The translations under genes and the position numbers were made by a program. From NCBI GenBank assembly GCA_963664405.1, contig OY761158.1, positions 5,696,001 to 5,760,000 of the forward strand: a DNA stretch of 64,000 nucleotides. The letters are read 5' to 3'. The DNA is from Thermoanaerobaculia bacterium. Its GTDB lineage: Bacteria > Acidobacteriota > Thermoanaerobaculia > Multivoradales > Multivoraceae. The notes beneath the pieces are model-generated. The model was not told the origin of the DNA. It saw only the letters and a list, made by a program, of their open reading frames with translations, and did not search any database. Positions 22,603 to 59,210 of this stretch are shown piece after piece; positions within the stretch are counted from its first letter, which is position 1; every line of letters starts with the position of its first letter.

Positions 22603-22707
22603 CTAGGAGCGTGTCCGAGAATTCGGACAGGCGAGTAGTTCTCAGGCGGGGATTCTCAGGCGGGGATGGGCCGGGAAACGGGCCGAAGGCGCGTTTTCTG
22701 GGGCTAG
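22603..22707. repeat. CTAG-bounded hairpin repeat, module D (stand-alone copy with an internal 14-bp tandem duplication)
   Basis: CTAG GAGCGTGTCCGAGAATTCGGACAGGCGAGTAGTTCTCAGGCGGGGATGGGCC...GGGG CTAG; near-identical to 53220-53309 and similar to the inserts in 30320-30532 and 58954-59210. Confidence 0.85.
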
Positions 22708-23483
22708 GGCCCGCCGGCGCTCGTCTCTGGAGTCAGCCTCGCGCGGCCGCGAAAGGCGGCGACCGCGAGCCAGCCTGCCGGCAGCAGCACCAGCAGGTAG
22801 CTCAGTAGACGGCCGTAGGCACCGTCGGGGCCGTAGGGCTCGGTCGCCCAGTGAAGAGTCTCGCTGTAGGGAAGAACGTTGGCTTCGGTAAGCTCGTGGA
22901 CTCCGTAGATGAGTAGCTGTACTACGAAGACCAGAAGGAAGACGGCGGTCACCTGGAGAAAAATGCCCAGATTCAGTCGGTGACCCCAGCGCGCCCAGGC
23001 CAGTGCCAGCAGGGCGGCCGCGATGCAGCCGAGGACGGCCCCTATCAGAAGCTGAGTTGACTTGACCTGGAACACCAGAGCATTGAAGAGTAGGGCAGTC
23101 TCCATCCCCTCCCGAGTGATCATGAAGATCGTGAAGACGAAAACTCCCAGCCACGCTCCCCGCCCCTCTCGAGCCGCTGAGGTCTCCAGCCGAGACTGGA
23201 TCTGCTGGCGCATGTGCTTGCCCGCCCTCCACATATGAACGGTCAGAGAGGCCACCAGTACGGCGGCGACGATGGCCAGGATGCCCTCCCAAAGAGCTTT
23301 GTTGGCTGCCTGGTGAAACAGCCACGCTGCCGCGACGCTGCACCCGATCGAGGCGACAACGCCCCAATGAACAGCCGACACGAGTGAGCTTCGCCCAGTC
23401 TTTTTCAGATAAGAGAGACTGATGGCGACAATCAGGAATGCCTCCAGACCTTCACGAAGAGTGATAACTAGAGCTTGAAACAT
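22704..23483 (-). CDS. FTR1/EfeU-family iron permease
   Basis: Two RExxE motifs (LREGLEA, TREGMET), about 7 TM helices, and YGVHEL. Confidence 0.9.
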   Translation of the reverse strand: MFQALVITLREGLEAFLIVAISLSYLKKTGRSSLVSAVHWGVVASIGCSVAAAWLFHQAANKALWEGILAIVAAVLVASLTVHMWRAGKHMRQQIQSRLETSAAREGRGAWLGVFVFTIFMITREGMETALLFNALVFQVKSTQLLIGAVLGCIAAALLALAWARWGHRLNLGIFLQVTAVFLLVFVVQLLIYGVHELTEANVLPYSETLHWATEPYGPDGAYGRLLSYLLVLLPAGWLAVAAFRGRARLTPETSAGGP

Positions 23484-23506
23484 CGTTTATTCTTTATCTT
23501 CTTCAT

Positions 23507-23523
23507 TTGAGACAACGTCTCAA
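23507..23523. promoter_or_regulatory. Palindromic operator, probably a Fur-family or other metal-responsive repressor site
   Basis: TTGAGAC-AAC-GTCTCAA is a perfect 7-3-7 inverted repeat 23 bp upstream of the FTR1 start codon. Confidence 0.6.
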
Positions 23524-23636
23524 TAAGGGGCGCCTATTCTGACCGAGGAGGATCGCGCTGTCAAAAGACGAGTGGGTCGCCCATCCATCACCGCCTTGGC
23601 GAGATGGATAGCGTGCCTTCTCAGGACGGTAAGATG

Positions 23637-23667
23637 TTGATTTATGTCAATTTGTCGAAAAACGGCA
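23637..23667. promoter_or_regulatory. Candidate activator sites (FNR/CRP-like box and an enhancer-like palindrome)
   Basis: TTGAT-TTAT-GTCAA (23637-23650) and TGTCG-AAAAA-CGGCA (23653-23667) in an AT-rich intergenic region about 125-150 bp upstream of a sigma54-type promoter. Confidence 0.35.
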
Positions 23668-23789
23668 CCCGTATGACAATAATTGGGCGCGCACGATGAC
23701 GTTTTATGTCGACCTGGAAAGGTCCGACGACCTTGAGTTCCGGGCCTAAACCTCGCCTCGCCAAGTGTTTGCGCTAATCGTAGTTGCCC

Positions 23790-23805
23790 TGGCACGGGGC
23801 ATGCT
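23790..23805 (+). promoter_or_regulatory. Sigma54 (-24/-12) promoter candidate
   Basis: TGGCACGGGGCATGCT versus consensus TGGCACGNNNNTTGCW, about 30 bp upstream of the ORF at 23835. Confidence 0.6.
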
Positions 23806-23834
23806 TCCTAATTCGGAAAGATTAGGGGGCCAGG

Positions 23835-24473
23835 ATGGGGAGCATCACAAGAACATGGCGCCGACTTCGCGGACAGCACATCTCGGCGCCGAGCTATGAC
23901 TGCTGTCGATCCGAGCGAGAACTGCTCGGCACTCTGGGTGACGCGATTAGTGACAGCGCGCGAGACATTGCCTTGGCGGTTCGGCCTCCGGGCTGTGGGC
24001 GCCTGGCCTTGCTGGTCATGAAGTCGTTTTCTCCGACGAACTACGCGTACCACTCGATGGTCCGAGCGCGCTTGCTCTCCGAGTCGATCGTCTTCGTTGC
24101 GGGCAGGATCCGCGAAGTTCTCGCCGAGCTTTGCGAGCATGGTGACGCGGACTATCTCTATCGCGAGGCCGCGACCTGCGCCGGTGCTTCGATGGCGACA
24201 GCCGCGAACATGACCCCCGACGAGGCCGGGGAGTTCACTCGCACTCTCTCTCACGTTCTCCTACAGCATGCTCACTTCCCGCCTTCCGATGACGACCAGG
24301 CCTTGGTTCGTCTCGTCGCCTCGAGAGAGAGAAAGCTGACGGTTGCAGAAGCGGTTCGAGTGCTCCGCAAGCTCATGGGCCTGGACCCACTGATGCGTAC
24401 CGAGCCTTGGGCTTTCGCACGAAGCTGGCAGCTTCTTCGTGGCGACAGCTGGGATGCGGCCGCGAGCGTCTAG
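23835..24473 (+). CDS. Hypothetical protein
   Basis: 212-aa ORF preceded by AGGGGG and a sigma54-like promoter; no family recognised. Confidence 0.6.
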   Translation: MGSITRTWRRLRGQHISAPSYDCCRSERELLGTLGDAISDSARDIALAVRPPGCGRLALLVMKSFSPTNYAYHSMVRARLLSESIVFVAGRIREVLAELCEHGDADYLYREAATCAGASMATAANMTPDEAGEFTRTLSHVLLQHAHFPPSDDDQALVRLVASRERKLTVAEAVRVLRKLMGLDPLMRTEPWAFARSWQLLRGDSWDAAASV

Positions 24474-24668
24474 GCGACAGCGAACCGGCCTTCCTCGATC
24501 CCTTCTCGATTCTCGTGGCGTCGCCAGCGGCAGCCTGGCGAACCTCCTTGCGCTTCTTACACGAGGTGGAGCTTTAGCTCGGCTCCTGTGTCAACATATC
24601 CCTCCACACCGGGCCGCGCTCCCAAGGACGACGGCGCGCGGAGAGGATCCCCTGATTGGAGGAACTAG

Positions 24669-25433
24669 ATGGCACCCCTCGAGATCGAGATCATTCCTGT
24701 TCTGAGCGACAACTATGTCTACGCCCTCCACGAGCCCACTTCGGGTGCTACCGGAGTCGTTGACCCGCCGGTGGTCGAGCCGGTTCTTGGCTGTCTCGAG
24801 GCGCGTGGGTGGAGCCTGGACTGGATCCTTTCCACCCATCATCATGCCGACCACACCGGCGGCAATTTGGAGCTCAAGGCCAAGACCGGATGCCGAATCG
24901 TGGGCCCGAAGAACGATCCGATCCCAGGTCTGGACCAGGGGGTGGGGGAGGGTGATCGCTTCAAGCTCGGCGAAGCGGAGGCGGTCGTGTTCGAGACCCC
25001 CGGCCATACCCGCGGTCACATTTCTTATTGGTTCGAGGGAGCGAGTGCCCTCTTTTGCGCCGATACTCTCTTCTCCCTTGGCTGTGGCCGTCTCTTCGAA
25101 GGCAGCCCTGAGCAGATGTGGCATTCACTTGGTAAGTTTCTTCCACTGCCGGATGAAACTCTCGTCTACTGTGGTCACGAGTACACACTCTCCAATGCCC
25201 GCTTCGCGCTGTCGATCGATCCGGACAACGCCGCCTTGCAGTCTCGCGCCGGCGAAATAGAGCGCCTCAGAGAGCAGGGAAAGCCGACGATCCCCTCTCA
25301 GCTCGGTGAAGAGAAGGCCGCCAATCCCTTTCTTCGTCCCAACGATGCGGCGATTCGTCGACGGCTCGGTATGGAGAGTGCGTCCGAGGCCGAGGTTTTT
25401 GGCGAGATCCGTCGGCGCAAGGACGCCTTCTGA
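24669..25433 (+). CDS. gloB: Hydroxyacylglutathione hydrolase (glyoxalase II)
   Basis: Motifs LSDNY, THHHADHTGG, TPGHTRGH, DTLFSLGCGRLFEG, CGHEYT, NPFLR and RRRKD; GGAGG ribosome-binding site. Confidence 0.95.
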   Translation: MAPLEIEIIPVLSDNYVYALHEPTSGATGVVDPPVVEPVLGCLEARGWSLDWILSTHHHADHTGGNLELKAKTGCRIVGPKNDPIPGLDQGVGEGDRFKLGEAEAVVFETPGHTRGHISYWFEGASALFCADTLFSLGCGRLFEGSPEQMWHSLGKFLPLPDETLVYCGHEYTLSNARFALSIDPDNAALQSRAGEIERLREQGKPTIPSQLGEEKAANPFLRPNDAAIRRRLGMESASEAEVFGEIRRRKDAF

Positions 25434-25450
25434 GATCCGGAGCCGGCCTC

Positions 25451-27223
25451 TTAGCGGAGCAGGGCTTCGATCGTGTGAGCGGCGACGGGGTGGTAGCCGG
25501 GTTTGGCGCGCTCGAAGATCTCGACCGCCCTCTTGCACCCCGCTTCGGTCCGTGCGAGCTCATCGTAGAGAGGCTTGAGGAATTTTCGCCGACCTTGACT
25601 CATCAGGAACCTTTCCAAGGCGGCGTCCGCCGGCTGGTAAGCGTGGCGGATCGTGAGTAGCAGCCAAGCGGCGAGAATCTCGCAGTTGCCGGTCTCGGTG
25701 AAGCCGAAGGTCTTGTCGATGTCGGCGAGCTGCCTCTCCTTCAGCGCTCCTGGAAGATTGCGAAGAAAATGAAGCTTGCGCTGCGTCTCCCAGCCTTCGG
25801 TGGCGAGCTCCGCGGCTGGGGTACCGGCGAGGAGGCGTTGGATCTCCTGCTCGACGCGGGCGAGGGCCGGAGAGGAGGGTCGGGGGGCATCCGCCGGCAG
25901 GCCGGGACCGAAGACCCAGTCGTCGACATGAAGCCTCTCACGCGAGGTTCCCGCCGGCGCCAAGAGTGTAGTTTCGAGATAATCGAGGAAGCGCTCGGTG
26001 GACATCGACTGGAAGGCAAACTCGTCGAAGTAGCGGCGAACAAAGTCATCCCAGGCGCTTCGCCCGACCGCTTCCTCGAGCATGCGGAGGAAGAAGAACC
26101 CCTTGTCGTAGGCGATGAGATTCATGCCATCGTCGGGGTCGCGGCCAGCCAGAGACAGTTGCAGATGAGTGTCGGGGCTCGATGCACCGAGAGTCTCGAT
26201 TTCGTGGTCGAGCTCTTGGCGAGAGATCAGAGCGAGCATCTCGGCGTGGTCGGTCCCATACAGGGCCTCCATGATGCGATGTTCGAAGTAGGTCGTGAAG
26301 CCCTCGTTGAGCCAGAAGTCGTTCCAGCTGGCGTTGGTGACGAGGTTGCCTGACCAGGAATGAGCTAGCTCGTGGGCGACGAGCGAGACCAGGGAGCGGT
26401 CACCGGCGAGGATAGTAGGTGTCGCAAAGGTAAGGCGAGGGTTCTCCATGCCGCCGAACGGAAAGCTCGGCGGGAGGATGAGAAGGTCGTAACGGCCCCA
26501 TCGGTACGCGCCATAGAGATTCTCGGCAGCGGCGATCATCGACTCGGTGCCTGCGAGCTCCCAACTTGCGGCGTCTATCGTTTCAGGTTCAGCATAGACC
26601 CCTGTCCGGGGACCGAGCGACTGGAACTCGAGATTGCCGACAGCCAGCGCCATCAGGTATGAGGGGATCGGCTGCGTCATCTTGAAGCTGTACTTTCCGT
26701 CTCCGTTCCGCCTCCGTGGGTTTCGGGCGCTCATCAGTGCGATCATCCCGGTGGGTACGCGAACTTGCGCCTCGTAGGTGAAGCGCACGGCCGGAGAGTC
26801 CTGGAGGGGTACCCAGGTGCGTGCGAGAATTGCCTGGGACTGGGTGAACAGGAGCGGGTGATTCCCGTTTGCGGTCTGAGCCGGCTCGAGCCACTGCAGG
26901 GCGGTAGCGTTGGGACTGGTGCGATAGCTCAGGCTGACGCTCTGGGTCGAGGGGGCGAGCGATATCACCAGTGGCCGACCGAGAATCCCCTGGTCTTCAC
27001 CGAAAGCGAAGTCAAGGGCTTTGCCGTCATTCCCCTGAACCTGGTCGATGGCTAGGCCCCAGGTGTCGAGCACCAATTCCGAGGCTCCGTCGCTGCGCTT
27101 CAGTTCCAGCGTTGCCGTTCCTGTCAGCTGGCGCTGCCCGAAGTCGACCTCCAGGTCCAGGGCAAGGTGCTGAACGGAGGTCTCCCAGGGGCGTGCGAAG
27201 GAGTGAGGATCGTCGAAGCGCAT
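25451..27223 (-). CDS. M1 family aminopeptidase (leukotriene A4 hydrolase-like)
   Basis: Motifs DPHS, FPFGGMENP and HELAHSWSGN...WLNEG (HEXXH-X18-E), YDKG, and C-terminal GRRKF. Confidence 0.92.
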   Translation of the reverse strand: MRFDDPHSFARPWETSVQHLALDLEVDFGQRQLTGTATLELKRSDGASELVLDTWGLAIDQVQGNDGKALDFAFGEDQGILGRPLVISLAPSTQSVSLSYRTSPNATALQWLEPAQTANGNHPLLFTQSQAILARTWVPLQDSPAVRFTYEAQVRVPTGMIALMSARNPRRRNGDGKYSFKMTQPIPSYLMALAVGNLEFQSLGPRTGVYAEPETIDAASWELAGTESMIAAAENLYGAYRWGRYDLLILPPSFPFGGMENPRLTFATPTILAGDRSLVSLVAHELAHSWSGNLVTNASWNDFWLNEGFTTYFEHRIMEALYGTDHAEMLALISRQELDHEIETLGASSPDTHLQLSLAGRDPDDGMNLIAYDKGFFFLRMLEEAVGRSAWDDFVRRYFDEFAFQSMSTERFLDYLETTLLAPAGTSRERLHVDDWVFGPGLPADAPRPSSPALARVEQEIQRLLAGTPAAELATEGWETQRKLHFLRNLPGALKERQLADIDKTFGFTETGNCEILAAWLLLTIRHAYQPADAALERFLMSQGRRKFLKPLYDELARTEAGCKRAVEIFERAKPGYHPVAAHTIEALLR

Positions 27224-27228
27224 CAGTT

Positions 27229-27388
27229 CTAGTGTCCTGTATCAGTGGTTCGTTGCATAAATCGCGCAGTCATTTTGGGTGCTGCCAAGGCGCTACGACG
27301 AAGGTATATTGGGCAATATTTGAGCAACGACGGCAGCGCGCAAAAGGGCCAGCGAGTTGTGTGACGAACTACTGGTACAGGACACTAG
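27229..27388. mobile_element. MITE-like element, type B (TIR TGTCCTGTAYCAGTRGTTCGT), CTAG-flanked
   Basis: CTAG TGTCCTGTATCAGTGGTTCGT...ACGAACTACTGGTACAGGACA CTAG; core shared with types A and C; partial second copy at 33856. Confidence 0.8.
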
Positions 27389-27549
27389 ACCAGCGTTTCC
27401 AAAGTTCGCGCACATATCTCGGCCCCTTCTGTCCGCTGACGGCGTTTCGCCTCCTCGACATATTGCCCAATATGCCTGCGTCGGCGGGCCTGGCCAGCGA
27501 ACAGAATGACCTCGAGCTATGTACACGAACTTTGGAAACGCTGGTCTAG
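27385..27549. mobile_element. MITE-like element, type A (TIR ACCAGCGTTTCCAAAGTTCG), no D insert, CTAG-flanked
   Basis: CTAG ACCAGCGTTTCCAAAGTTCG...CGAACTTTGGAAACGCTGGT CTAG. Shares its left CTAG with the type B copy; the right CTAG is the stop of the methyltransferase gene. Confidence 0.85.
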
Positions 27550-28454
27550 GTGGGGTGGCCTTGGATCTCGTCAGGTGTGGCGGCTCCGCCGCGGGCGAAG
27601 AGTAGGATCCTGTACTCCTTGAGCGCGAGGAAAGCCTCGGGGTCGACGCGCGGCCTCCAGCGCCTCTCTACTCGTTGTCGCAGTTGTCGTACTGCCAGTC
27701 GCAGACTCCGATACTTGAATCGACGACGAAGAGTTCGGGTCCATGAGTCGATTTTCGCACACTTGACTTCGAAGTCCTTGTCGAGATCGCGCAAGGCTCT
27801 GGTCACCACGTCGTCAAGAAATCGAGCGGCGATCTCGAGCGTGGGCAGGGTCTCTTTGGTGATGTCTTCGTCGAGCTGCAGCTGGAATCCGGCGTCTGCC
27901 GCCGCCGCGCGTAGGGCGCCCAGGGGATGCCCGCTGCGTTCGATGGGATGATCCTGCTCGGAGAGGGGGCGTCGGACGAAGTAGTCTGCGATGAGGAGAT
28001 ACCCGTCCTTTGCAAGAGCTCGGTCGGCGACGTCGAAGAGCCGGCTTAGATTGATGTACTGGCTGGATTCGCTCATCAGGATCAGTTCGAAGCGGCGGTC
28101 CGGCTCGAAGTCGTCGAAGCGGGTCAGGTACTTCGAGACCAAGCCGTCGCCGAGCTCTTCGAGCTGGTAGGAGTCTGGGGACAGCACCGAGACCTGGTGC
28201 CCACGGGCGCTCAACTCTTTAGCGGTAGTGCCGAAACCGCAGCCGACGTCGAGTAGGCTCGAGACTCTCAACGAGCTCACAATGTCGAGCAGTCGGGTCG
28301 CGTAGCGAGTTTGTGCCACGCGCAGCTCGGCAAAGCCCAAGTCCGGGCCTTTTTCTTCGAACAGGCCGTAGTGTAGATGCTCGAGGCCGAGGGTGTCGTG
28401 AAGGAAGCGGAGGACTGCATCCTGACTCGCTGCCTCGGCTCCAGAGTCGGGCAT
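27546..28454 (-). CDS. Class I SAM-dependent methyltransferase
   Basis: Motifs HLHYG, LLDVGCGFG, ESSQY and LAKDGYLLIADY. Confidence 0.8.
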   Translation of the reverse strand: MPDSGAEAASQDAVLRFLHDTLGLEHLHYGLFEEKGPDLGFAELRVAQTRYATRLLDIVSSLRVSSLLDVGCGFGTTAKELSARGHQVSVLSPDSYQLEELGDGLVSKYLTRFDDFEPDRRFELILMSESSQYINLSRLFDVADRALAKDGYLLIADYFVRRPLSEQDHPIERSGHPLGALRAAAADAGFQLQLDEDITKETLPTLEIAARFLDDVVTRALRDLDKDFEVKCAKIDSWTRTLRRRFKYRSLRLAVRQLRQRVERRWRPRVDPEAFLALKEYRILLFARGGAATPDEIQGHPT

Positions 28455-28503
28455 AGGCCGGTCATCCTAGCAGCGCGCGGTGCGCTTCGGTCGACCTGAG
28501 CTA

Positions 28504-30237
28504 CTATCCACGGCTGAGAATGTCAGGTTTACGGGATGTGCTCTCGCCTGGCTGGGCTACGCTCTGATCCGTTCCTGAGTCGCGAGCCTTCGTTGACGTG
28601 CCCCTCGATCGCTGAATTCGTCCTTCGAGGCGTGGCGCCAGGGGCGAGCTCGAGCGAATGTGATCTTGCACGATGTCGGCCAGCACCTTGCCCTGGTCGT
28701 AGGGGTCGATTGCTCGCTCAGCCAGGATCGTGAACCCGTCTCCTCCGTTGCGAGTGAAATCGTTGGTGACGACTCTATAGAGGCGCTCGGGGTCGAGAGG
28801 ACTGAACCTTTCTGAGTCGAGCTCGACTTCAACCTCTTCGATTCGTTTCCCTACCGCGGCGTCCGGCGACCAGGAGTAGCGCAGCCCGGCGACCTGGAGA
28901 AAGCGACCGGTGCCGTCGTTGTCGAGGTTCTCCGCAACGCTGACGCCGTGCTCGAGGGCGGCAAGAAGGTCCTTGCCGTAGAGCGAGAAAGTGCTGGCGG
29001 TATTGCCGAAAGGGAGCACTTCGAGAATGTGGCCCACGGTGATTGGACCCGCGCTCAGGCTGGAGCGAATTCCTCCGGCGTTCTGCAGGGCGATCTCGAC
29101 CCCCTGATCTCGATGGGCGTCCAAGAGGGCGTCGGCGAGGAGATTACCCAGGTTGCACTCAGCGGCTCTGCAGACTCTCTCGCGACCGACCAGATCCACG
29201 GTCGTCTCGCCGACTGTAACCAGACTGAATCCGTCGAGCTCGGCAAGCATGGGCTCTACCAGGGTCAGGGTTTTTTCGTCCTTCTCGACTGACACGTCGA
29301 GCAGAATCGGCTCTCCTTCCCATGACCTGACCACCCCCTCTGCATCGAAGCGGGTTTCGAGGTGGCCGAGATATTTCCCCCAGGCAAAGTCGGTGACGAT
29401 GAGGACGGGCTCGCCGCGAGGCCCGTCGACCACCACCGGATACGGCCCCTCGGCGCCTTCAGCTATGTTGGAGAGCAGAGTGTTTGTGTGTCCCCCGACG
29501 ATGATGTCGAGGCCTGCCACCGATGCCGCGATCGATCGATCACGGCCGATGCCGGCGTGGCTCAGAAGGATGATCTTGTTGACGCCTTTCGCCTCCAGCT
29601 CCTCGACCCCCTCCGCTAACGATTCCTCGATCGCGAGGAAGTCGACGTCAGGCCCGGGTCGAGAGAGGATCCTGGTCTCCTCGGTCAGACAGCCCAGGAT
29701 GCCGATCTCGTGGCCTCCTATCTCGAGGATCGCCAGCTCTTCGAGCTTGCCGGCGAGGGCGGAGGTGTCGGCGACCTCGATATTGGTCATGACGACCGGG
29801 AAGTTCAGGCCCGCGATAAAGGGAGCGAGCACTTCAGGACCGTCGTCGAACTCGTGATTGCCCGGAACCATGGCGTCGTAACCCAGATGGTTCATCGCCC
29901 TCTGGGCGGCCAGTCCTCTGAAGCGGCTGTAGAAGAGAGTTCCCTGAAACTGATCTCCGGCATCGAGAAGAAGCACATGCGGTCGCTGGGCACGAACCCT
30001 CCGAATCTCAGTGGCTCGCCGGGCGACACCGCCGAAGCAAGCGCCTTCCGCTCGTTCGTCATCGCGGCACGAAGAGCCGTAGCGGTTGAACTCGACGATG
30101 CGAGCGTGGGTGTCGTTGGTATGGAGAAGAGTGAGCTCGAACGGCTCTCCAGGGTCGCCCGACTTGCAGGAGGCGCCCACGAGCAGCGCGATGGCTACGA
30201 GACCCCCGAGCAGGAGCCGGATCGCATCGTCCTTCAC
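28504..30237 (-). CDS. 5'-nucleotidase / bifunctional metallophosphatase (lipoprotein)
   Basis: Lipobox LVGASC; motifs HTNDTH, LDAGDQFQGT, GNHEFD, GGHTN, NAGGIR, LPFGN and GGDGF. Confidence 0.92.
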   Translation of the reverse strand: MKDDAIRLLLGGLVAIALLVGASCKSGDPGEPFELTLLHTNDTHARIVEFNRYGSSCRDDERAEGACFGGVARRATEIRRVRAQRPHVLLLDAGDQFQGTLFYSRFRGLAAQRAMNHLGYDAMVPGNHEFDDGPEVLAPFIAGLNFPVVMTNIEVADTSALAGKLEELAILEIGGHEIGILGCLTEETRILSRPGPDVDFLAIEESLAEGVEELEAKGVNKIILLSHAGIGRDRSIAASVAGLDIIVGGHTNTLLSNIAEGAEGPYPVVVDGPRGEPVLIVTDFAWGKYLGHLETRFDAEGVVRSWEGEPILLDVSVEKDEKTLTLVEPMLAELDGFSLVTVGETTVDLVGRERVCRAAECNLGNLLADALLDAHRDQGVEIALQNAGGIRSSLSAGPITVGHILEVLPFGNTASTFSLYGKDLLAALEHGVSVAENLDNDGTGRFLQVAGLRYSWSPDAAVGKRIEEVEVELDSERFSPLDPERLYRVVTNDFTRNGGDGFTILAERAIDPYDQGKVLADIVQDHIRSSSPLAPRLEGRIQRSRGTSTKARDSGTDQSVAQPGESTSRKPDILSRG

Positions 30238-30319
30238 TGTGGGGAGTCTATCGCCGCGCCTTGTTCATCGCGGTCTGCTTGCCGGGTTTCACACCGGACA
30301 CCGTCCATCGAGACAGAGA

Positions 30320-30532
30320 CTAGACCAGCGTTTCCGAAGTTCGAGTCGCATAGCTCGAGGTCATTCTGTTCGCTGGCTAGGAGCCTGCGAAGCAGGCGAG
30401 TAGTTCTCAGGCGGGGATGGGGGCGAGGCGCGCCGACGCAGGCATATTGGGAATCTGTCGAGGAGGTGCAACGCTGCCAGCGGGCAGAAGGGGCCGAGAT
30501 AGGTGGCGCGAACTTTGGAAACGCTGGTCTAG
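30320..30532. mobile_element. MITE-like element, type A with nested module D (second D hairpin deleted)
   Basis: TIRs ACCAGCGTTTCCGAAGTTCG and CGAACTTTGGAAACGCTGGT with CTAG on both sides; D insert at 30377-30427. Confidence 0.85.
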
Positions 30533-33855: not shown

Positions 33856-33959
33856 CTAGTGTCCTGTATCAGTAGTTCGTCACACAACTCGCTGGCCCTT
33901 TTGCGCGCTGCCGTCGTTGCTCCTCCTAGTAATATTGCCCAATATGCCTTCGTCGTAGC
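33856..33959. mobile_element. Truncated type B MITE-like element
   Basis: CTAG TGTCCTGTATCAGTAGTTCGTCACACAACTCGCTGGCCCTTTTGCGCGCTGCCGTCGTTGCTC...ATATTGCCCAATATGCCTTCGTCGTAGC matches the reverse complement of 27229-27388; the second TIR is missing. Confidence 0.85.
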
Positions 33960-36487
33960 CCTCCGGAGCATCAGAGAATTGGAGGGTCTGAAGGTCGCGC
34001 TGTCCCTGGATCGTTTCCACCTTTGCTCCGCGGTAGAGCTCGGCGGTGGCGAGAGAAGCCTCTTCTTCAGGTGTCGGCCATCCTCCGTCGATCAACGCCG
34101 CCGAGGGTAGGCTCCGCACTTCGTCGATGGCTCTCGTGATGGTCGTTATCTCGGAGCTCGAGACTTGCTTCGGGCTCGCGAACTCTAGGTAGAGGTTGTC
34201 GTCCGTATTGAGGAACGACCCTTCGGTGAAGGCTTCCATCGCCCGGTCGTCGAGCGCGAGCTCGGCTAGGAAGGAACCGGCGTCCGCGAGCCCGATCTAC
34301 GCGAGCTGCCGGTCCACCCCGGGCTGGCGAGCCGTTGGCCGAGCTCCTCGAAGTCGAAGCTGATGGGGTTGTTGCTGCCGACCAGGATGGCGTCGTTCGC
34401 GGTCTGCCAGAGCGTCGTGTACTCGAACGCTCTGTCAAAGGAGGCCGCCGCCGCTCGCACGTTCTCCAAAGAGAGCTCGTAGAGGGGCAACCACTGACAC
34501 ATGATGCCTCCTGGAGTGAGCCGCTGAGCTGCGAGATCGTAGTACTCGAGGGTGTAGAGATAGGCCGCGCCCCGCACCCAGGGGTGGATCGGGTCGGCAG
34601 TGATGACGTCGTAGCGCTCTCGGGTGGTGAGAAGATGATTCCGCCCGTCTTGAAATGTGATCTCGAGGCGAGGGTCGTCCAGAGCCGCGGCGTTCACGTG
34701 AGAGAACAGACGGGCTGCCGCGACTACCTCGGGCTCGATCTCGATCACTGTGACCGCTTCGAGCTCTGGATGGGCAAGAACAGCGCCGAGGGTGATGCCC
34801 GCGCCCAGGCCAACGACTGCAACAGAACGGGGCCTCGGCCGAGCGAGCACAGGGATGTGCCCGAGCAGAAGCTCGTGCTGCATGTCACTAAGACCGTCGG
34901 TAGCGACCGTTTTGCCGTCGATCACGAGAGCTCGCGTACGGCGACCCTCGACGACGGCCACGTTGGCGCTCTTTCCTTCCTCGTAGTGGAGCACCGTACT
35001 TTCGCGTGCAAGCGCTTCTAGGTTACCGGCTGCCGGATCCTGGAGGTAGACGTGCATCATGTTGTTGCGGAATGCTGCCAGCACTCGAAGGTCCCAGCCG
35101 GCAGTCGTAGTGCTCCGAGAAAGGCTGCCAGAACGATGGCGGTGGTAGCCAAGGTCAGAATCCAGGGGTGCACTGTCTTGCGGGCCCTGAAGTGGGCTGC
35201 CGATACGAGTACACCATAGGAACAGAAGAGGGCAGCGATGAGCAGCATTCCGCGCTGCATTCCGACCGTTGGAATCAGGACGAAACCGGCTCCGAGCGCC
35301 CCGACTATGGCGCCGCTCGTATTGAGGGCGATGAGCTCACCGATCGAGCTGCCGACGCGATCGCGAAGTCGAGATCCCGCTTCCCCGGCCATGGGGAAGG
35401 CAAGACCCATGAAGATGCAGGGGGCTAGCATGATGGCGAAGCTCAGGAGCAGAGTGCCCCCTGCCTTGATGCCGTTCGGCTCGGTGTAGAGAGCGCGCGT
35501 CAGGCTCAGAGACCAGCTGGGAAGGTGGGGCAGAAGTTGGGAAACGATTGCGCTCGCGACGCCGAGGAGAATCATCACCGAGCCGAATTGGAGAGCCGGA
35601 CTCAATCGCTGCAGGGGAAAAGCGGCGTGAATTGTGCTGCCGATTGCAATACCAACGAGGAACGCTGCCAGCATCACCGAGAAACTGTAGGCGCTGTTGC
35701 CTACCGCGATGGTGATGCCGCGCATCCAGAGCACTTCCAGCGCCAGCGCACCCATGCCGGCGATTGCGGTGCCGTAGAAGGCCAGGCGCAGAGCCGCGGC
35801 TTCGGAGGGTGCTCGAGCGAGACTCTGATGCTCGCCGGCGTCGTGGGGCGCTGCCTTCCCGGCCACTCGAGCCCACTGACGGCTCAGGACCAGAGCGCCG
35901 ATGCCGATGGCGAGATTGACCGCTGCCGCCAAGCCGGCAGTGGCTCTCATGCCAAAGCTCGGAAGCAGGATGAAGCCCGCGCTCAAGGTTCCGAGAACCG
36001 CGCCACCGGTGTTGACGGCGTACAGAACCGCAAGCCGGTTGGCCACCTCGCTTCGCCGGGCAACCAGGAGCTGAACCAGCACCGGTAGAGTGCCTCCCAT
36101 CAGGAAGGTGGGAACTACGAGGACCGCACTCGCGAGGAAGACCCGCAAGACCTGGAGCTGCCACGGCGTACCGTCGGCGGCCAGTGCGGCGGCTACGTAG
36201 ACACGATTCACGACGGCGATGGCGCCAGGTACCAGAAGAGCCGAGATCGCGATCAGTACTTCCAGTACACCATAGAGGCGAAGGGGGCTCCGCACCCTCT
36301 CGACAACTCGCCCTAAAGCCATACCACCGAGGGCCAGCCCGCCCATGAAGGCGCCGAGAACCACGCTGACCGCCTCGTGCGTGGCTCCGAAAACGAGAGT
36401 CAGGCTGCGTGCCCAGACCGTTTCGTACACCAGCGCCGTTGCGCCGGAGAGGAGGAAGAGGCTGTAGATGAAGAGGCGCGCTTTCAT
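33880..36487 (-). pseudogene. Fused membrane domain/spermidine synthase-like (SpeE-like) gene, disrupted
   Basis: N-terminal LSGATALVYETVWAR...PTFLMGGTLP membrane domain and VVGLGAGIT...IEIEP...DGR...YDVITADP...NTDDN SAM domain. Frameshifts near 35097 and 34322, an in-frame TAG at 34297-34299, and a 3' end running into the type B repeat. Confidence 0.85.
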
Positions 36488-49798: not shown

Positions 49799-51624
49799 GC
49801 GGGATTGGCGACCAGGAAGAGCTGGCTCTCGGCAAGGTCTACGACTCAGATTTGGTGCGGCGCCTGTGGCCCTTCGCGCGGCCCCATTGGCGCTACATCA
49901 TGTTCTCGTTTCTCTTGATCCCGCTGCGGGGTCTTCTCGAAGTGGTCCCTCCTCTAGTGGTCGGCGCCGCCCTCAACTATCTCGTCGAGGGCGAGGTGTC
50001 TTCGGCGGTGCCGTTGGCTGAGGGATTCCTGCAGCCACACCTAGGTCTGGAGCCGCTCGAATGGCTGTTTGCGGTACTGATCACGGTGGCGGTGGCGCTG
50101 CTTTCGCTGGACTGGCTTCGCGGCTGGTCGATGCTCGTTCTCGGGCAGAAGACCGTATTGGACCTGCGCCGCCACCTCTTCGATCATGTTCAGCGACTCC
50201 CGATGCGCTTCTTCGACCGTTACCCGGTGGGCCGTCTGGTGACCCGGCTGACCAACGATCTCGAGAGCCTTGCCGAGATGTTCTCGATGGGGGTTGTTGC
50301 TCTCATCGCCGACCTCTTCGTCATGGCTTTCTTCGCCTATGTTGTCTTCACCATCGATCCCCGCTTAGCTGCGGTGGCGATGGCTATCGTCCCGCTGCTC
50401 GCGATCGGAGCCGGCATCTTCCGCTACAAAGTTCGAGAGGCCTTTCGTGAAGTACGCGTCAAGATCGCGAGGCTCAATGCGCAGCTGCAAGAGACCATCT
50501 CGGGGATGAAGGTGGTACAGCTGTTCGCTCGCGAGGCCCGCAACATGGCTGACTTCGATCGCATGAACGCGTCGCATCGCGACTCGTGGATTCGCTCGAT
50601 CAACTACGACGCGCTGCTGTACTCCTCGGTCGATCTCGCCACCAACCTTACGCGGGCCCTCATCTTCTGGTACGGCGCTCGGCTGATGGGTCGGGGAGAG
50701 ATCTCGATCGGCACCCTCTATGTCTTCACCGACTACATGGTGCGTTTCTTTCGCCCGCTGATGGATCTCTCCGGCAAGTACTCGATCATGCAGTCGTCGA
50801 TGGCCAGCGCCGAGCGCGTTTTCCAGCTGCTGGACGAAGAGCAGGAGCCGCCAGACCGAGCCGGGACGGAGGTCGCGGGTAAGGGCGAGGTCGTCTTCGA
50901 CCATGTGACCTTTTCTTACGGCGACGCGCCGGTGCTGAAAGATGTCTCCTTTCGGGTTGCGCCAGGAGAGCGGGTCGCCTTCGTCGGCCACACCGGGTCC
51001 GGAAAAACAACCACTCTGAAGCTCTTGGCTCGTCTCTACGAGCTCGAAGAGGGGAGCATCCGTGTGGATGGCGTGGACATTCGTGAGATACCTCGCGATG
51101 AGCTGCGACGACACATGGCGTTCGTACTACAGGACGTGTTTCTCTTTGACGGCACTCTGCGCTACAACATTCTTCTCGACTCTGAGACCGCGGGCGAAGA
51201 GGAGCTCGCCGCCGCGGTCGACGCCACCCATGTTCGGCCCCTGGTGGATCGGCTGCCGCAGGGCTATGAGCAGCCGGTGAGCGAGCGCGGGGTGAATTTC
51301 TCGACCGGCGAGCGGCAGCTGCTCTCCTTTGCCCGCGCCTTGGTTCGGCGGCCGTCCATCCTGTTGCTGGACGAGGCGACCTCGAGCGTCGATACCGAGA
51401 CCGAGGCCTTGGTGCAGGATGCCCTTCATCATCTCCTCGAGGGCAAGACTTCGATCGTCGTTGCCCACCGTCTCTCGACCATTCAGGATGTCGATCGAAT
51501 CTACGTCATGCACCACGGCTCGATCTGCGAGCGCGGCAACCATCAGGAGCTCTTGGCTCAACGTGGCCTCTACTGGCGCTTGTACCAGATTCAGTTTGCC
51601 CAGCAGGAGGGCGCGGCCGCCTAG
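49795..51624 (+). CDS. Heterodimeric ABC exporter subunit 2 (TMD-NBD)
   Basis: ATG at 49795 overlaps the upstream TGA. Motifs GKVYD, PVGRLVTRLTND, GHTGSGKTT, degenerate signature FSTGERQ, LLDEATS and AHRLST. Confidence 0.93.
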   Translation: MSGIGDQEELALGKVYDSDLVRRLWPFARPHWRYIMFSFLLIPLRGLLEVVPPLVVGAALNYLVEGEVSSAVPLAEGFLQPHLGLEPLEWLFAVLITVAVALLSLDWLRGWSMLVLGQKTVLDLRRHLFDHVQRLPMRFFDRYPVGRLVTRLTNDLESLAEMFSMGVVALIADLFVMAFFAYVVFTIDPRLAAVAMAIVPLLAIGAGIFRYKVREAFREVRVKIARLNAQLQETISGMKVVQLFAREARNMADFDRMNASHRDSWIRSINYDALLYSSVDLATNLTRALIFWYGARLMGRGEISIGTLYVFTDYMVRFFRPLMDLSGKYSIMQSSMASAERVFQLLDEEQEPPDRAGTEVAGKGEVVFDHVTFSYGDAPVLKDVSFRVAPGERVAFVGHTGSGKTTTLKLLARLYELEEGSIRVDGVDIREIPRDELRRHMAFVLQDVFLFDGTLRYNILLDSETAGEEELAAAVDATHVRPLVDRLPQGYEQPVSERGVNFSTGERQLLSFARALVRRPSILLLDEATSSVDTETEALVQDALHHLLEGKTSIVVAHRLSTIQDVDRIYVMHHGSICERGNHQELLAQRGLYWRLYQIQFAQQEGAAA

Positions 51625-51696
51625 TAGACCAGCGTTTCCAAAGTTCGGGCTGCATAGCTCGAGCTCATTCGGTTCGCTGGCCAGGCGCGCCGACGC
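51625..51696. mobile_element. Truncated type A MITE-like element
   Basis: TAG ACCAGCGTTTCCAAAGTTCGGGCTGCATAGCTCGAGCTCATTCGGTTCGCTGGCCAGGCGCGCCGACGC immediately after the ABC transporter TAG stop; the right half is missing. Confidence 0.85.
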
Positions 51697-52489: not shown

Positions 52490-52491
52490 CT

Positions 52492-54043: not shown

Positions 54044-54062
54044 GAAGTGGCTCCTGATGGGC

Positions 54063-55136: not shown

Positions 55137-55214
55137 GAAAGTCAGTCTACCTTGCTCGCTTTGGCACCGGCGATGCCGAGTGTCCCCTGGAGAGGTCGGA
55201 TGGAGGGGAGGGCT

Positions 55215-55239
55215 GACTCACGATTTGCGCTCGTGAGTC
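55215..55239. promoter_or_regulatory. Inverted repeat, candidate upstream activator site
   Basis: GACTCACGA-N7-TCGTGAGTC is a perfect 9-bp inverted repeat about 47 bp upstream of a sigma54-type promoter. Confidence 0.4.
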
Positions 55240-55285
55240 GTCCAGAGCGCTGTAACAGCAGAGGTTCCTCGGTTTGAAAGGGTGT

Positions 55286-55301
55286 TGGCATCGAGGTTGC
55301 T
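55286..55301 (+). promoter_or_regulatory. Sigma54 (-24/-12) promoter candidate for the outer-membrane barrel gene
   Basis: TGGCATCGAGGTTGCT has the TGGCA-N6-TTGCW spacing. Confidence 0.6.
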
Positions 55302-55311
55302 CTAGGAGTAC

Positions 55312-55478
55312 CTAGTGTCGTGTCCCAGAAATGCCTACCCAATAGCTCGGCCCCTTTCGCTCGCTGCCTTCGTTACGCCTCGCCGACAGATTTCCCAATA
55401 TGCCTGCCTCGCCGCGCCTTGGCAGCGAACGAAATGACCTCGATCTATTAGGCAGGCATTTCCGGGACACGACACTAG
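55312..55478. mobile_element. MITE-like element, type C (TIR TGTCGTGTCCCRGAAATGCCT), CTAG-flanked
   Basis: CTAG TGTCGTGTCCCAGAAATGCCT...AGGCATTTCCGGGACACGACA CTAG; core GGCCCCTTT..CGCTGCC..CGTT..CCCAATATGCCT..GCGCCTTGGCAGCG..AAATGAC shared with types A and B. Confidence 0.8.
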
Positions 55479-55513
55479 GTCCCGCTGAAGCCCCTATGAA
55501 AGAGGAGAGATCT

Positions 55514-56224: not shown

Positions 56225-56234
56225 CGCGGCCGAA

Positions 56235-56489
56235 TCAGTCGCGCTTGCGAAAGACCCTGAAAATGGCCATGGCGAGGGTCGACCCGATGGTGGCGAAGAT
56301 GACGGTGCGCAGCCCTACCTCGGGCCCGTCCCCGTGGCTGATAAGAGATGAGAGCGCCCCCCCGAGAACCGCCCCGGCGACGCCGGTCAGGATCGTCGGG
56401 GCTAAGGCAAGGGGATCCTCGGCGGGCTTGAGCAGCCGTGCCAGCATGAAGGCGAGGGTGCCGGCGGCGAGCCAGGCGATGAGCTCCAT
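56235..56489 (-). CDS. GlsB/YeaQ/YmgE (transglycosylase-associated) membrane protein
   Basis: 84 aa, three TM segments, motifs LARLL.P, GVAGAVLGG and ATIGS. Confidence 0.7.
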   Translation of the reverse strand: MELIAWLAAGTLAFMLARLLKPAEDPLALAPTILTGVAGAVLGGALSSLISHGDGPEVGLRTVIFATIGSTLAMAIFRVFRKRD

Positions 56490-56492
56490 CTC

Positions 56493-57752
56493 TTAGCGAC
56501 CCTCGCTCGTTTGATCTTTCGCGGACACGCTCGGCCCGAGTCGAGCCGCGACCAGCTCGCGCTTGTTTCGCGCGAAGAGGACTCCGTCGGAATAGGCGGG
56601 GTAGGCCCGTACGACACCCTCGAGAAGCTTGGCCGTACTCCGGGGCTCGAATCCCGCTTCGCTTGCTGTGGCGGAGATCAGACGACCGTCTTCGTGAAGA
56701 ACGAGTAGCGTGTCACTGACGAGAGTGAGGCTTCCGGACCCGAACCTCTCGAGGCTCCAACGCACCTCGCCGGTGTCGAGCCGGATGCAGCGTAAGGCCG
56801 GCCCGTATTCCTGCCGCCCATGAAACCCGTAGAGATGACCCTTGGAGTAGACGCTGGTGGCGTAGTGGTTCGACAGGATCTCGTCCGAGGTCCACACCGG
56901 TTGTGGTTTCTCCGAGCTCAGTTGGAGGAGGGTGGCACCCGTGCCGTAGCTAGCCGAGAGAAAAACTCGATCGCCGAGTACCAGGGGGGTTGCGGCGTTG
57001 ACGGAAGAGCCCGAGCGCGAGCGCCACCTCAAAGAGTGCCGCAGCGTCCCAGTTGCGCTGTCGGTGATTACCAGGCCCTCCCGCGTCAAAAAGACAACCG
57101 CAGGCTCGCCTCCGAGCTTCGCGCTCACTGGAGAGGAGTAGCTCGCCCCTTGGCGGGTGCTCTGCCATGCCACCTCGCCGGTTTCGGCATCGAAAGCGAC
57201 GATGCCCGCGTCGGCGCCTCCGACATTCACGAACACGCGGCCGGAGTCGACGAGGGGGCTGGTGGCGGCGCCGAAGAACCCTTTGCGCACCTTGAAGCGC
57301 GGATGGGTCTCGACCTTCCAGAGGGGCCGGCCCGAGGTGAGCTCGAGGGCGCTCAGAACACCCTGTGCGCCGAAGGTGAAGACCTTGTCTCCCGCGATTG
57401 TCGGCGCCGCGCGAGGGCCCTCGTCGAAGCCGAAGTCGTCGCGGTATGCGGTGGTGTAGTGGTGGGTCCACTGGAGCTCGCCGGTGGCGGCGTCGAGACA
57501 ATCGACGACTTCGTGGCCGTTGGCGCGATGGAAGAGAATCAGTCGCCGATTCGCCACCGTTGGGGCACTGAAGCCTTCACCGACAGGTCTCGTCCAAAGA
57601 ATGGGAGGACCCGAGCTCGTCCACTGTTCAGGAGCTGGCTCTAGGGAGGTTCCGTCACGTCTCGGCCCGAGATGCTGAGGCCAGTCCTTCGCGACGACTT
57701 CAGCGCTCACCAGGAGCGCCGTAGCCGTCACCAGCAGTGGCAGCGGCCTCAT
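56493..57752 (-). CDS. PQQ-binding-like beta-propeller protein (BamB-like repeats)
   Basis: Signal peptide, DWPQHLGP.R.G, repeated LDA.TGE..W motifs, YSSP and LFARN. Confidence 0.85.
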   Translation of the reverse strand: MRPLPLLVTATALLVSAEVVAKDWPQHLGPRRDGTSLEPAPEQWTSSGPPILWTRPVGEGFSAPTVANRRLILFHRANGHEVVDCLDAATGELQWTHHYTTAYRDDFGFDEGPRAAPTIAGDKVFTFGAQGVLSALELTSGRPLWKVETHPRFKVRKGFFGAATSPLVDSGRVFVNVGGADAGIVAFDAETGEVAWQSTRQGASYSSPVSAKLGGEPAVVFLTREGLVITDSATGTLRHSLRWRSRSGSSVNAATPLVLGDRVFLSASYGTGATLLQLSSEKPQPVWTSDEILSNHYATSVYSKGHLYGFHGRQEYGPALRCIRLDTGEVRWSLERFGSGSLTLVSDTLLVLHEDGRLISATASEAGFEPRSTAKLLEGVVRAYPAYSDGVLFARNKRELVAARLGPSVSAKDQTSEGR

Positions 57753-58552
57753 CGGTCTCGCGCCAATAGGTGAACGCGGGCGACGACGCCCATGTAGTGG
57801 GGGAGGTCCAAATCACGAGCCTTCTCGATGTGCTCGCGGCCGTCCTCCGTTAGACCGATCGCTTCGAGATAGAGGCCGACGTAGAGATACCCATAGAAGA
57901 GGCGGTCGGGGTGCAGTTCACTTGCGGCAGAGCCTATCCCCGCTGTCTCGAGCACTTCTTCGACTCTGGCTTTGCCACGAAAGAGATCGTAAATCGCCAT
58001 CATCGGCAAGCGGGGGTCCGGCCCCACCGGTAGGATCAAGCGCCGGGCATTGGCGAATCCCTCGCTACCCGCGACACAGAGAAAGTGCCAGACGGCGTTC
58101 TCTACGTCGTCCGGATTGACCGAGCGATGGAGCTCGAACTGCGCTCGGCACGCTGCGTAGCGCCCGGCGTAGTACTGGGAGATCCCTCGCTGCCACAGCG
58201 AGGCTTCACGCGGGGGATCGAGCTCGACCACGCGATCGAGATCGGCCACTGAACCCTCGATGTCGCCAAGTTGAAAGCGAAGCTGGCCTCTTAGTAGAGG
58301 CCCCCTCCAGTCCTCGGGGGCGGCAGAGACCAGGCGGTCGTATTTGGCGCGAGCGCCTTCGAAGTCTCCTGCTCGCTCGAGTGACTGACCCTCCTGGAGC
58401 AAGAAGTCTGCGGAGGAGCCTGCTTGCGCCAACGCGGCGGGCTGCGCCACGGGCAGCGCCGAGGCCGTCAGGGCTACGGTCAGAGCTGGCAGCCATTTCG
58501 TCGGACGAAGTCGAGGGCGAGCTGGGCGGACGGCTTTGCGCGGGCTTCTCAA
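57749..58552 (-). CDS. TPR protein (NlpI-like)
   Basis: TPR helices, LWQRGISQYY, HRSVNPDDVENAVWHFLC and FYGYLYVGLY. Confidence 0.75.
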   Translation of the reverse strand: MRSPRKAVRPARPRLRPTKWLPALTVALTASALPVAQPAALAQAGSSADFLLQEGQSLERAGDFEGARAKYDRLVSAAPEDWRGPLLRGQLRFQLGDIEGSVADLDRVVELDPPREASLWQRGISQYYAGRYAACRAQFELHRSVNPDDVENAVWHFLCVAGSEGFANARRLILPVGPDPRLPMMAIYDLFRGKARVEEVLETAGIGSAASELHPDRLFYGYLYVGLYLEAIGLTEDGREHIEKARDLDLPHYMGVVARVHLLARDR

Positions 58553-58866
58553 TTTGGACTCTTGGGCAGCCGAAGACGTCGCTTTTCCGGATCTCGAGCC
58601 TGTCGGTACAAGATCGCGACGTGTCCGACGATGCCGGCCACCTCCGCCCGCAACTTCTCTTCGATGTCGGCGCAGAGCTCGCGCTTCTTGCCTCTGTGGT
58701 CGAGAAAGCGGATCTTGATCAGCTCGTGCTGGCCGAGAGCCTGATCGAGACTTGCGAGAACGCTCTCGCTGAGACCGGCACGGCCGATGTGGATGATGGG
58801 GTCTAGGCGGTGACCTAGACCCCGCAGGTGCTTGCGTTGAGAGCTGCTTAGTGCGTCGGAGCTCAT
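58549..58866 (-). CDS. yhbY: CRM-domain RNA-binding protein (ribosome assembly)
   Basis: Motifs QRKHLRGLGHRLDP, IGRAGL, HELIKIR and VGHVAILYR. Confidence 0.92.
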   Translation of the reverse strand: MSSDALSSSQRKHLRGLGHRLDPIIHIGRAGLSESVLASLDQALGQHELIKIRFLDHRGKKRELCADIEEKLRAEVAGIVGHVAILYRQARDPEKRRLRLPKSPN

Positions 58867-58953
58867 CTCTTACCTTCGAGAACGGCGAACCTCGATGTGG
58901 TTGTGATCATAGCTTTCTTTTGGAATCGCAGAGCCTCCAGGCTCCTGGGTCCA

Positions 58954-59210
58954 CTAGACCAGCGTCTCCAAAGTTCGTGTGTAATAGCTCGAGGTCATTC
59001 TGTTCGCTGGCTAGGAGCCTGCGAAGCAGGCGAGTAGTTCTCAGGTGGGGATGGGCCGGAGAACGGGCCGCAGGTCCGTTCTCTGGGGCGAGGCGCGCCG
59101 ACGCAGGCATATTGGGCAATATGTCGAGGAGCGCGGGGGCGCCTAGCCAACGCCGGCAGCGGGCAGAAGGGGCCGAGATATGTGCGCGAACTTTGGAAAC
59201 GCTGGTCTAG
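58954..59210. mobile_element. MITE-like element, type A with complete nested module D
   Basis: CTAG ACCAGCGTCTCCAAAGTTCG...CGAACTTTGGAAACGCTGGT CTAG; D insert at 59011-59092. Confidence 0.88.

Follow-up and report, generated by a model that had tools for sequence, protein, structure and literature searches.

In a 64,000-nucleotide stretch of the chromosome of a Thermoanaerobaculia bacterium (contig OY761158.1, positions 5,696,001 to 5,760,000; hereafter the window), we analyzed a family of short repeats flanked by CTAG. On balance, these repeats appear to belong to a superfamily of transposable elements of the miniature inverted-repeat class (MITEs) that are mobilized by IS630-type transposases and whose proliferating lineages have been selected for a stem-loop formed by a single strand. 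The arms of the elements are base-paired across about 30 bp in each end type and enclose a core laid out as a stem, an internal loop, and an apical hairpin. The better-folding strand, called here the hairpin strand, reads GTCATT...CAGGCAT...GTCGAGGAGG. The window is part of a closed chromosome of 6.78 Mb with a G+C content of 62.6% (G000:C1).

Elements in the window and their mobility

The copies in the window were placed by a profile of the core and by BLAST of the element ends, as follows.

27229..27388, plus strand (hairpin strand): complete type B element, 160 bp including both CTAGs
27385..27549, minus strand: complete type A element, 165 bp
30320..30532, plus strand: type A element with an internal insertion of about 50 bp (core profile and end BLAST)
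33856..~33961, minus strand: truncated type B element, left end and about 75 core positions (end match at 33856; core match at 33887-33961, profile positions 2-76)
51624..51696, plus strand: truncated type A element, one end and the first part of the core (end match at 51624; core match at 51654-51696, profile positions 65-107)
55312..55478, minus strand: complete type C element, 167 bp (core profile and end BLAST)
58954..59210, plus strand: type A element with nested insertions, 257-bp variant (core profile and end BLAST)

An initial annotation, made from the letters of the window, had placed the copies at these sites, and sequence reading, profile, and BLAST all found the sequences there. 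CTAG stands at both termini of all five complete copies, as it had claimed. The end types A, B, and C that it distinguished are present in the window, and the genome holds two more, D and X, both outside the window. The statement that the window is free of transposases holds for the families DDE_Tnp_1, DDE_3, and Y1_Tnp, whose matches in the genome all lie outside the window.

The type B element at 27229-27388 and the type A element at 27385-27549 have one CTAG in common, and the right CTAG of the latter (27546-27549) includes the TAG stop codon of a minus-strand gene at 27546-28454. The type C copy gave three 100% BLAST matches of 167 bp in the genome, that is, itself and two identical copies. 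With the 257-nt sequence at 58954-59210 as the query, eleven other full-length matches were found in the genome at 77.5-95% identity, so that the long variants number about a dozen. A second CTAG-bounded dispersed repeat family, which starts with CTAGGAGCGTGTCCGAGAATTCGGACAGG, is present at 22603-22690 of the window and gave 96 BLAST matches in the genome. The insertion that lengthens the type A variants of 213-257 bp is a fragment of this second family, nested in 30363-30420 and 58954-59210.

In the whole genome, nhmmer (E <= 1e-3) found 260 matches to the core, 179 of which cover at least 100 profile positions. Complete elements with paired ends number 224 (A, 144; X, 32; B, 22; D, 15; C, 11). 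These numbers are well above those expected by chance. Their typical length is about 166 bp in all five types, too short for a transposase frame. The tetranucleotide CTAG is three-fold under-represented in this genome (7502 observed versus about 23230 expected from base composition). Nevertheless, it is found on both flanks in 121 of 154 end pairs of type A, 14 of 22 of type B, 9 of 12 of type C, 10 of 17 of type D, and 20 of 33 of type X, some of these pairs being spurious 12-mer matches.

The mobility of the repeats is seen in a contig of a related strain (DNA run X6, record 26; 5288 nt), which is about 1-2% divergent from the window as estimated from counts of other letters. The contig joins window positions 27227 and 27545, and positions 30319 and 30529, with no letters between. 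Since it runs across both sites, the B and A pair and the type A copy at 30320-30532 are insertions missing from a close relative. A single CTAG remains at both empty sites, judging from the window sequence at the joints. The empty sites that the initial annotation proposed to look for in related strains thus exist, and the repeats are mobile elements that insert at CTAG and leave one CTAG at the empty site. Separately, the same contig carries about 122 extra letters (record positions 1930 to 2053) at window positions ~28540-28544, possibly an insertion restricted to the related strain.

Pile-ups of elements sharing one CTAG recur in the genome, because each new insertion creates two CTAGs. 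The CTAG flanks and the empty sites are compatible with duplication of TA inside CTAG and with a 4-bp duplication alike. In eight cases CTAG on one flank is paired with CTAA on the other, and no end pair was seen with identical flanks other than CTAG, for example CTAA/CTAA. These flank variants fit duplication of TA better than a 4-bp duplication, though they are not proof. At least four types of insertion sequence (IS) in the genome are also flanked by CTAG; three of them have DDE_Tnp_1 transposases, and another is IS630-like and its reading frame is split. CTAG is thus a landing site common to several mobile families, since several IS types are flanked by it though it is under-represented. 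Examples are listed below.

CTAG-flanked ISs, chromosome G000:C1: 378432-379995, 4658069-4659590, 406509-408227, and ~5164180-5165423

Remnants of 21 bp derived from type D lie between two CTAGs at eleven sites of the chromosome, each made up of the initial part of the left end and the final letters of the right end. Two of them adjoin a type A copy directly.

Type D remnants, 21 bp, chromosome G000:C1, outside the window: 515321, 970881, 1246019, 1386527, 1749802, and 2162961
Type D remnants (continued), outside the window: 4086618, 4678320, 5442182, 6310391, and 6758819

In our reading, the remnants are the product expected from slippage across the hairpin base between 8-nt direct repeats. 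This fit to slippage over a hairpin suggests that the hairpin forms in vivo.

Structure, distribution, and strand polarity of the core

RNAalifold folded 20 copies from this genome into one long hairpin, in which 35 of 49 pairs have compensatory double changes. A covariance model was built for the 107-nt core and used to gather representatives. The resulting alignment holds 44 sequences from this genome, related genomes, and named metagenome-assembled genomes (MAGs), and 27 of its rows are loci fetched by the 17-mer GTCGAGGAGGNGCAACG. With a structure of 25 pairs, 91.2% of the cells are paired versus 67.9% in shuffled alignments, and 23 of the 25 pairs have changes on both sides. None of 500 shuffles scored as high on every measure, and pairing drops to 30-51% in controls with slid partners. 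The apical stem, which lies outside the covariance model, still covaries (one pair is AU in 20 sequences and GC in 19), and the outer core stem has a conserved tandem U:G. The stem variants of the initial annotation, TTCTG/CAGAA in type A, TTTTG/CAAAA in type B, and TTTCG/CGAAA in type C, are present in the alignments, as is its central hairpin ATATTG-CC-CAATAT, and the covariation that it claimed for the stem persists in the larger alignment.

The non-palindromic stretches between the stems should be noted, since they are conserved across phyla, at 90% or more: CAAGGC, GACGnAGG, GTCGAGGAG, and GCAACG on the hairpin strand. Over 253 pairs of lineages, mean identity is 0.67 in the core and 0.44 in the ends. 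The ends thus diverge faster, contrary to what a MITE in ordinary decay would show, and, as had been proposed, it is the interior that is conserved.

The core corresponds to none of the Rfam families. The window gave no Rfam match at gathering thresholds, and five elements gave only three matches, to two families of microRNA precursors and to a long non-coding RNA region, at scores well short of threshold (18.6-24.5 bits versus 75-105). A literature search yielded no description of the family or of wobble polarity in bacterial MITEs; the prokaryotic MITE census of PMC11602168, whose sequences were not compared, may list the family. Readings of the core as a promoter, a terminator, a dif-like site, or a site for IHF were rejected from the sequence, without a scan: the apical stem covaries with no AT-rich box, and no U-run follows the hairpin.

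The core model matches 24 of 40 related genomes, or 18 of 28 genera including that of the window's own genome. It also matches 22 of 150 other genomes sampled evenly from the phylum (E <= 1e-5), or 21 of 149 without the unpublished genome G088. For bacteria at large, a species-level genome collection was scanned with the 17-mer, which gave at least 80 loci, mostly chance matches, and which tells of presence in named taxa rather than giving a census. At least 29 loci pass the covariance model among the 80 matches listed. Among these matches, the passing loci include MAGs labeled as Thermoanaerobaculia, Acidobacteriota, Phycisphaeraceae, Planctomycetota, Brocadiaceae, Methylomirabilota, Myxococcota, Gemmatimonadota, Eisenbacteria, and Gammaproteobacteria. 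Many passing MAG loci have the same CTAG-TG... ends. On viral contigs, none of the 30 loci with the 17-mer passes the model, which serves as a control of specificity and offers no hint of a vector phage carrying the 17-mer. Though binning errors remain possible in single MAG records, the core, as identified by the model, is present in Acidobacteriota and in MAGs from four or more further phyla.

The two strands of the elements are not equivalent. In each of the five consensus sequences, the hairpin strand is predicted to fold better than its complement, by 23-37 kcal/mol, because the mismatches in the stems are transitions of one polarity. The complement is also predicted to be very stable (-69 to -86 kcal/mol). 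With DNA parameters, the hairpin strand is better by 11-17 kcal/mol. The end regions of these five sequences contain 16 mismatches that are G:T on the hairpin strand and none that are G:T on the other strand; in the core, the numbers are 25 and 11. The same polarity is found across lineages: the core pairs of 18 lineages comprise 284 Watson-Crick, 36 G:T, 2 A:C, and 13 other pairs, and the end regions of 22 lineages show 48 mismatches of this polarity versus 13 of the other, with 37 transversions. Folding favors the hairpin strand in 10 of 11 loci of related genomes and in all 21 loci of named MAGs and genomes, which are mostly of other classes or phyla. In these comparisons, the orientation of the strands was set independently by the asymmetric loops.

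Contrarily, substitutions private to single copies of the five local families include 38 wobble-making and 23 mismatch-making transitions, and 61 transversions. This slight excess suggests that single copies decay almost neutrally and that the polarity is inherited from the founders that multiplied. Processes on the duplex, e.g., a transposase binding both ends, cruciform extrusion, or templated palindrome correction, would give no polarity, which argues for selection on one folded single strand. From the alignments, the interior is thus probably a strand-specific, covarying structure with conserved loops under selection. The one-strand G:T polarity points to the single-stranded structure, RNA or single-stranded DNA, that the initial annotation had suggested.

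The positions of the 224 complete copies relative to genes were examined with crude gene calls. The contexts are convergent in 71, tandem in 108, divergent in 30, and intragenic in 15 copies, and a TAG stop codon adjoins 85 of the 224. This abutment is explained by the CTAG target, which includes TAG. Orientation relative to genes is random, as 95 of 195 gene-end contexts and 56 of 108 gene-start contexts have the hairpin strand as their sense strand, and a function in host mRNA at each locus is therefore unsupported. With respect to replication, the leading-strand sequence corresponds to the complement of the hairpin strand in 132 of the 224 copies (132:92, p 0.009), a bias whose sign is common to the five types. 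The orientation along the chromosome is not random (range permutation test, p 0.012); 26 copies are on the plus strand and 54 on the minus strand at 0-2 Mb, versus 52 and 32 at 2-4.5 Mb.

Judging from the polarity, it is unlikely that the elements are ordinary selfish MITEs with a functionless core, i.e., a young and horizontally spreading superfamily whose paired changes arise by templated correction of quasi-palindromes during replication. Templated correction yields Watson-Crick pairs without polarity, whereas the observed ratios are 16:0, 36:2, and 48:13. Moreover, the unpaired, non-palindromic loops are conserved while the neighboring stems and ends change, the ends diverge faster than the core (0.44 versus 0.67), and several phyla carry the core on very different ends. 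This explanation does account for private substitutions that are near neutral for pairing (38 versus 23, with 61 transversions), for the lack of bias in gene orientation (100:95 and 56:52), and for the palindrome being lost by slippage in the eleven type D remnants.

A role at the level of the host is somewhat less probable still. In this case, a co-transcribed hairpin would stabilize or process mRNA like ERIC, REP, and Correia repeats, and the benefit to the host would conserve the core. The frequent TAG stop codons next to the copies, the distribution of gene contexts, and the G:U wobble pairs, including the conserved tandem U:G typical of RNA helices, are in line with such a role, and effects on mRNA are described for ERIC and Correia in excerpts of PMC3184786 and PMC3049150. 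However, the abutment to stop codons follows from the target site, the hairpin strand is the sense strand in only about half of the contexts, and private mutations are little constrained. In addition, a generic 3' hairpin needs no polarity, and the complement folds very stably as well.

Termini and the partner transposase

The nature of the ends is related to the question of which transposase moves the elements. After CTAG, the five local types all have G at position 7, T at position 8, and C at position 11. The ends read TGNNCYGT or nearly so across 16 lineages, in the register TGNNCYGT..C, and the element length is 164-168 bp in all 23 lineages in which both CTAGs could be placed, including MAGs from other phyla. 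Judging from this common register and fixed length, the end types are variants of a single IS630-type terminus held in a constant frame. The initial annotation had taken the three types of its terminal inverted repeats as unrelated, and that claim has to be given up, since they are diverged forms of one end, an outcome that it had itself named as refuting its proposal.

Among related genomes, IS630-family ISs that are flanked by CTAG carry the termini of the elements. The IS in genome G036 starts with TGGACCGTAAC, which agrees with type X at 15 of 15 positions (CTAG included), and the IS in G007 agrees with type X at 14 of 15. The IS in G013 ends with TGTCCTGTATCAG, identical to type B at 13 of 13 positions, and the ISs of three genomes of genus g11 start with TGCCGTGTC, identical to type D at 9 of 9. 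Distinct end types thus correspond to distinct IS630 lineages. Types A and C resemble IS630-family termini at the level of the register only. In genome G034 (contig C5, locus L050), a MITE at 833-1000 and a 1268-bp IS630-family IS at 996-2263 stand back to back with one common CTAG. The search for an autonomous partner that the initial annotation had envisaged thus yields matching IS630-family termini in relatives, where the ISs were located with the local IS630 protein, and no partner in this genome.

The portion common to elements and ISs is limited to the outer 9-13 bp, and the next 17-20 bp of each arm vary freely by type while staying paired. The interiors of three ISs (G036, G007, and G034) have no stretch longer than 13 nt in common with the elements, and the core is not in the IS interiors. 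Since only the termini are common to both, the elements are type II MITEs by the definition in the excerpt of PMC10969869, in which the sequence shared with the IS is restricted to the terminal repeats. The IS630 family duplicates TA and prefers TA within 5'-CTAG-3', according to an excerpt of PMC2170065, including its citation of Tenzen and Ohtsubo 1991. Taken together, termini and target make it very probable that the elements are MITEs mobilized by an IS630/Tc1-mariner transposase.

Three sets of candidates for traces of an autonomous partner in this genome were rejected. Two pairs of type A ends 2706 bp apart are type A copies split by a unit with an IS91-like transposase and a tyrosine recombinase, a further pair 3639 bp apart is a type A copy split by an IS21-type IS, and lone type D ends are the 21-bp remnants described above.

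G000:C1:6272417-6275122 and 6758844-6761549: interrupted type A copies, each with a 2706-bp unit (IS91-like transposase, 398 aa; tyrosine recombinase, 299 aa)
G000:C1:6281697-6285335: type A copy interrupted by an IS21-type IS (istA, 523 aa; istB, 269 aa)

The correlation between end identity and core identity is weak (r = 0.40 over the 253 lineage pairs), and one discordant pair, type B of this genome and the elements of G004, has ends 0.92 identical and cores 0.75. The cargo may have switched between ends, or the ends may have co-diverged in place with IS630 lineages; the fixed element length favors in-place divergence of the ends.

Two other classes of transposase are very improbable partners. 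In one case, HUH (Y1) transposases like those of RAYT and IS200 would move the elements as REPIN-like hairpins in the form of single-stranded DNA, and the likeness to IS630 termini would be incidental. The orientation bias of IS200/IS605 elements is much stronger than 59%. The genome has 13 diverged Y1_Tnp matches with open frames of about 300-440 aa; nine of the 13 are within crude gene calls of 299-321 aa. The strand-specific hairpin and the weak bias of replication orientation would also suit such a transposase. Against it, only two of the 13 Y1_Tnp genes lie less than 3 kb from a copy, which is about chance, and the elements start with CTAG-TG... and have no GTAG or CGTC tag. Their ends equal IS630-family termini, the same target sequence is at both ends with one CTAG at empty sites, as in a duplication, and the bias of 59% is far from the IS200/IS605 level. 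The other candidate, an IS5-superfamily partner making a 4-bp CTAG duplication, which the initial annotation had hinted at, is suggested by several CTAG-flanked DDE_Tnp_1 ISs in the genome (1564 bp, 1522 bp, and ~1.7 kb) and by the likeness of the two kinds of duplication at empty sites, but the ends of these ISs (GAGTCTGCGCGGCAG, CCCCAATTCGCGAA, and ATCGCGTCCGGAAACGG) match no element end, the termini of types B, D, and X are IS630-family termini, matched non-CTAG duplications are lacking, and PF13340, PF13359, and PF13586 have no match in the genome.

A proposed role for the folded strand and comparison with known systems

The favored reading, an IS630-mobilized superfamily selected for a single-stranded stem-loop, can be spelled out as follows. 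IS630-type transposases would act on the elements in trans and insert them by cut-and-paste at the TA within CTAG. The lineages that proliferate would be those in which one strand can fold into an uninterrupted stem-loop, and the folded single strand would act in cis in the spread of its own element. It may be single-stranded DNA exposed at the replication fork, as in the stem-loop amplification model for eukaryotic MITEs (Izsvak et al. 1999, as summarized in PMC5172404), or a transcript of the element. The core module would not be a host regulatory site at each locus.

A cis role in multiplication is favored by three observations in combination, i.e., the polarity of the founders, the random orientation relative to genes, and the double-stranded chemistry of IS630. 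That the fold serves amplification rather than host RNA metabolism is nevertheless a tentative proposal, to which we give somewhat less than an even chance. It is more doubtful again that the core is a functional single-stranded module that is passed horizontally between phyla on whichever IS630-type ends work, the fold being needed for it to multiply.

Several points weigh against the favored reading. One is chemical: transposition in the IS630/Tc1-mariner group is described in the excerpt of PMC2170065 as double-strand cut-and-paste with no hairpin intermediate, so that the known chemistry gives a folded strand no role. In this genome, no IS bears the exact ends of type A, B, C, D, or X, and the ends of the two IS630-like copies (TACAC.../TACTCC...) are unlike those of any of the five types. 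When related genomes were searched with the local IS630 protein, no IS630 gene was found in G004, G005, G009, and G012 despite 22, 40, 11, and 10 core matches, respectively. The alignments were fitted to the covariance model, which favors its pairs, and the conservation of the loops is partly by construction in the rows fetched with GTCGAGGAGGNGCAACG, where the 3' loop motif is the search pattern. The bias in replication orientation is weak, and the switch of orientation at about 1.9 Mb coincides poorly with the GC-skew minimum at 2.74 Mb. Finally, the same strand is favored with RNA and with DNA parameters, and the predicted energies thus suit either molecule.

How MITEs reach high copy numbers with cut-and-paste transposases is an old open question. 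The present family is a MITE superfamily with a measurable signature of putative selection on one folded strand, in that the wobble polarity is found in founders and not in private mutations. Its many natural end variants and its activity on the time-scale of strain divergence make the question testable. If the core is indeed a module shared between phyla whose one-strand fold is needed to multiply, this would be the first sequence-level evidence that MITEs of the Tc1/IS630 type amplify via a folded single strand, or that they carry a cis-acting RNA, instead of spreading by double-strand cut-and-paste only. In addition, the covarying core adds a nucleic-acid motif missing from catalogues, and its presence in MAGs of Acidobacteriota, Planctomycetota, Methylomirabilota, Myxococcota, Gemmatimonadota, and Gammaproteobacteria bears on the horizontal spread of non-autonomous elements. 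For annotation, its copies account for many repeats at stop codons and at contig breaks in soil metagenome bins.

A close parallel is ERIC/MITEEc1 of enterobacteria, a 127-bp imperfect palindrome placed under IS630 in ISfinder according to an excerpt of PMC11602168; TA flanks and effects on RNA are described in an excerpt of PMC3184786. Both families are small, non-coding, imperfect palindromes that form a hairpin over the whole element, are mostly intergenic, are conserved across genera, and have TA-containing flanks and an IS630-type affiliation. As judged by their features, they differ in that the present family is strict in its CTAG target, combines one core with many end types, and shows a measured wobble polarity of one strand; furthermore, it is found in several phyla, whereas ERIC is found in one family.

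The stem-loop model for Angel and other Tc1-mariner MITEs, as given in an excerpt of PMC5172404, similarly invokes a palindrome whose single strand folds back at the replication fork. In that model, the folded strand is the proposed intermediate of amplification. It concerns MITEs of fish and plants and is unproven, and the support from the present family is the polarity of its sequences only.

Type II MITEs are matched in that only the terminal 9-15 nt are common to IS630-family ISs and the interior is unrelated. The definition of this class is silent on a conserved, structured interior combined with many ends.

RUP and Nezha families are defined by their ends and have narrow host ranges. The present family differs from them in having variable ends and a conserved, covarying interior. 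These IS630-related bacterial MITEs, RUP being that of Streptococcus pneumoniae (excerpt of PMC3184786), are otherwise similar, i.e., non-autonomous, with inverted ends, present in many copies, intergenic, and thought to be mobilized in trans by IS630 transposases.

REP and REPIN sequences are likewise dispersed hairpin repeats in which structure matters beyond sequence and which are possibly handled as single strands. Unlike them, the present family has neither the GTAG/CGTC tag nor an association with Y1_Tnp genes, and it carries IS630 termini and the duplication pattern of CTAG.

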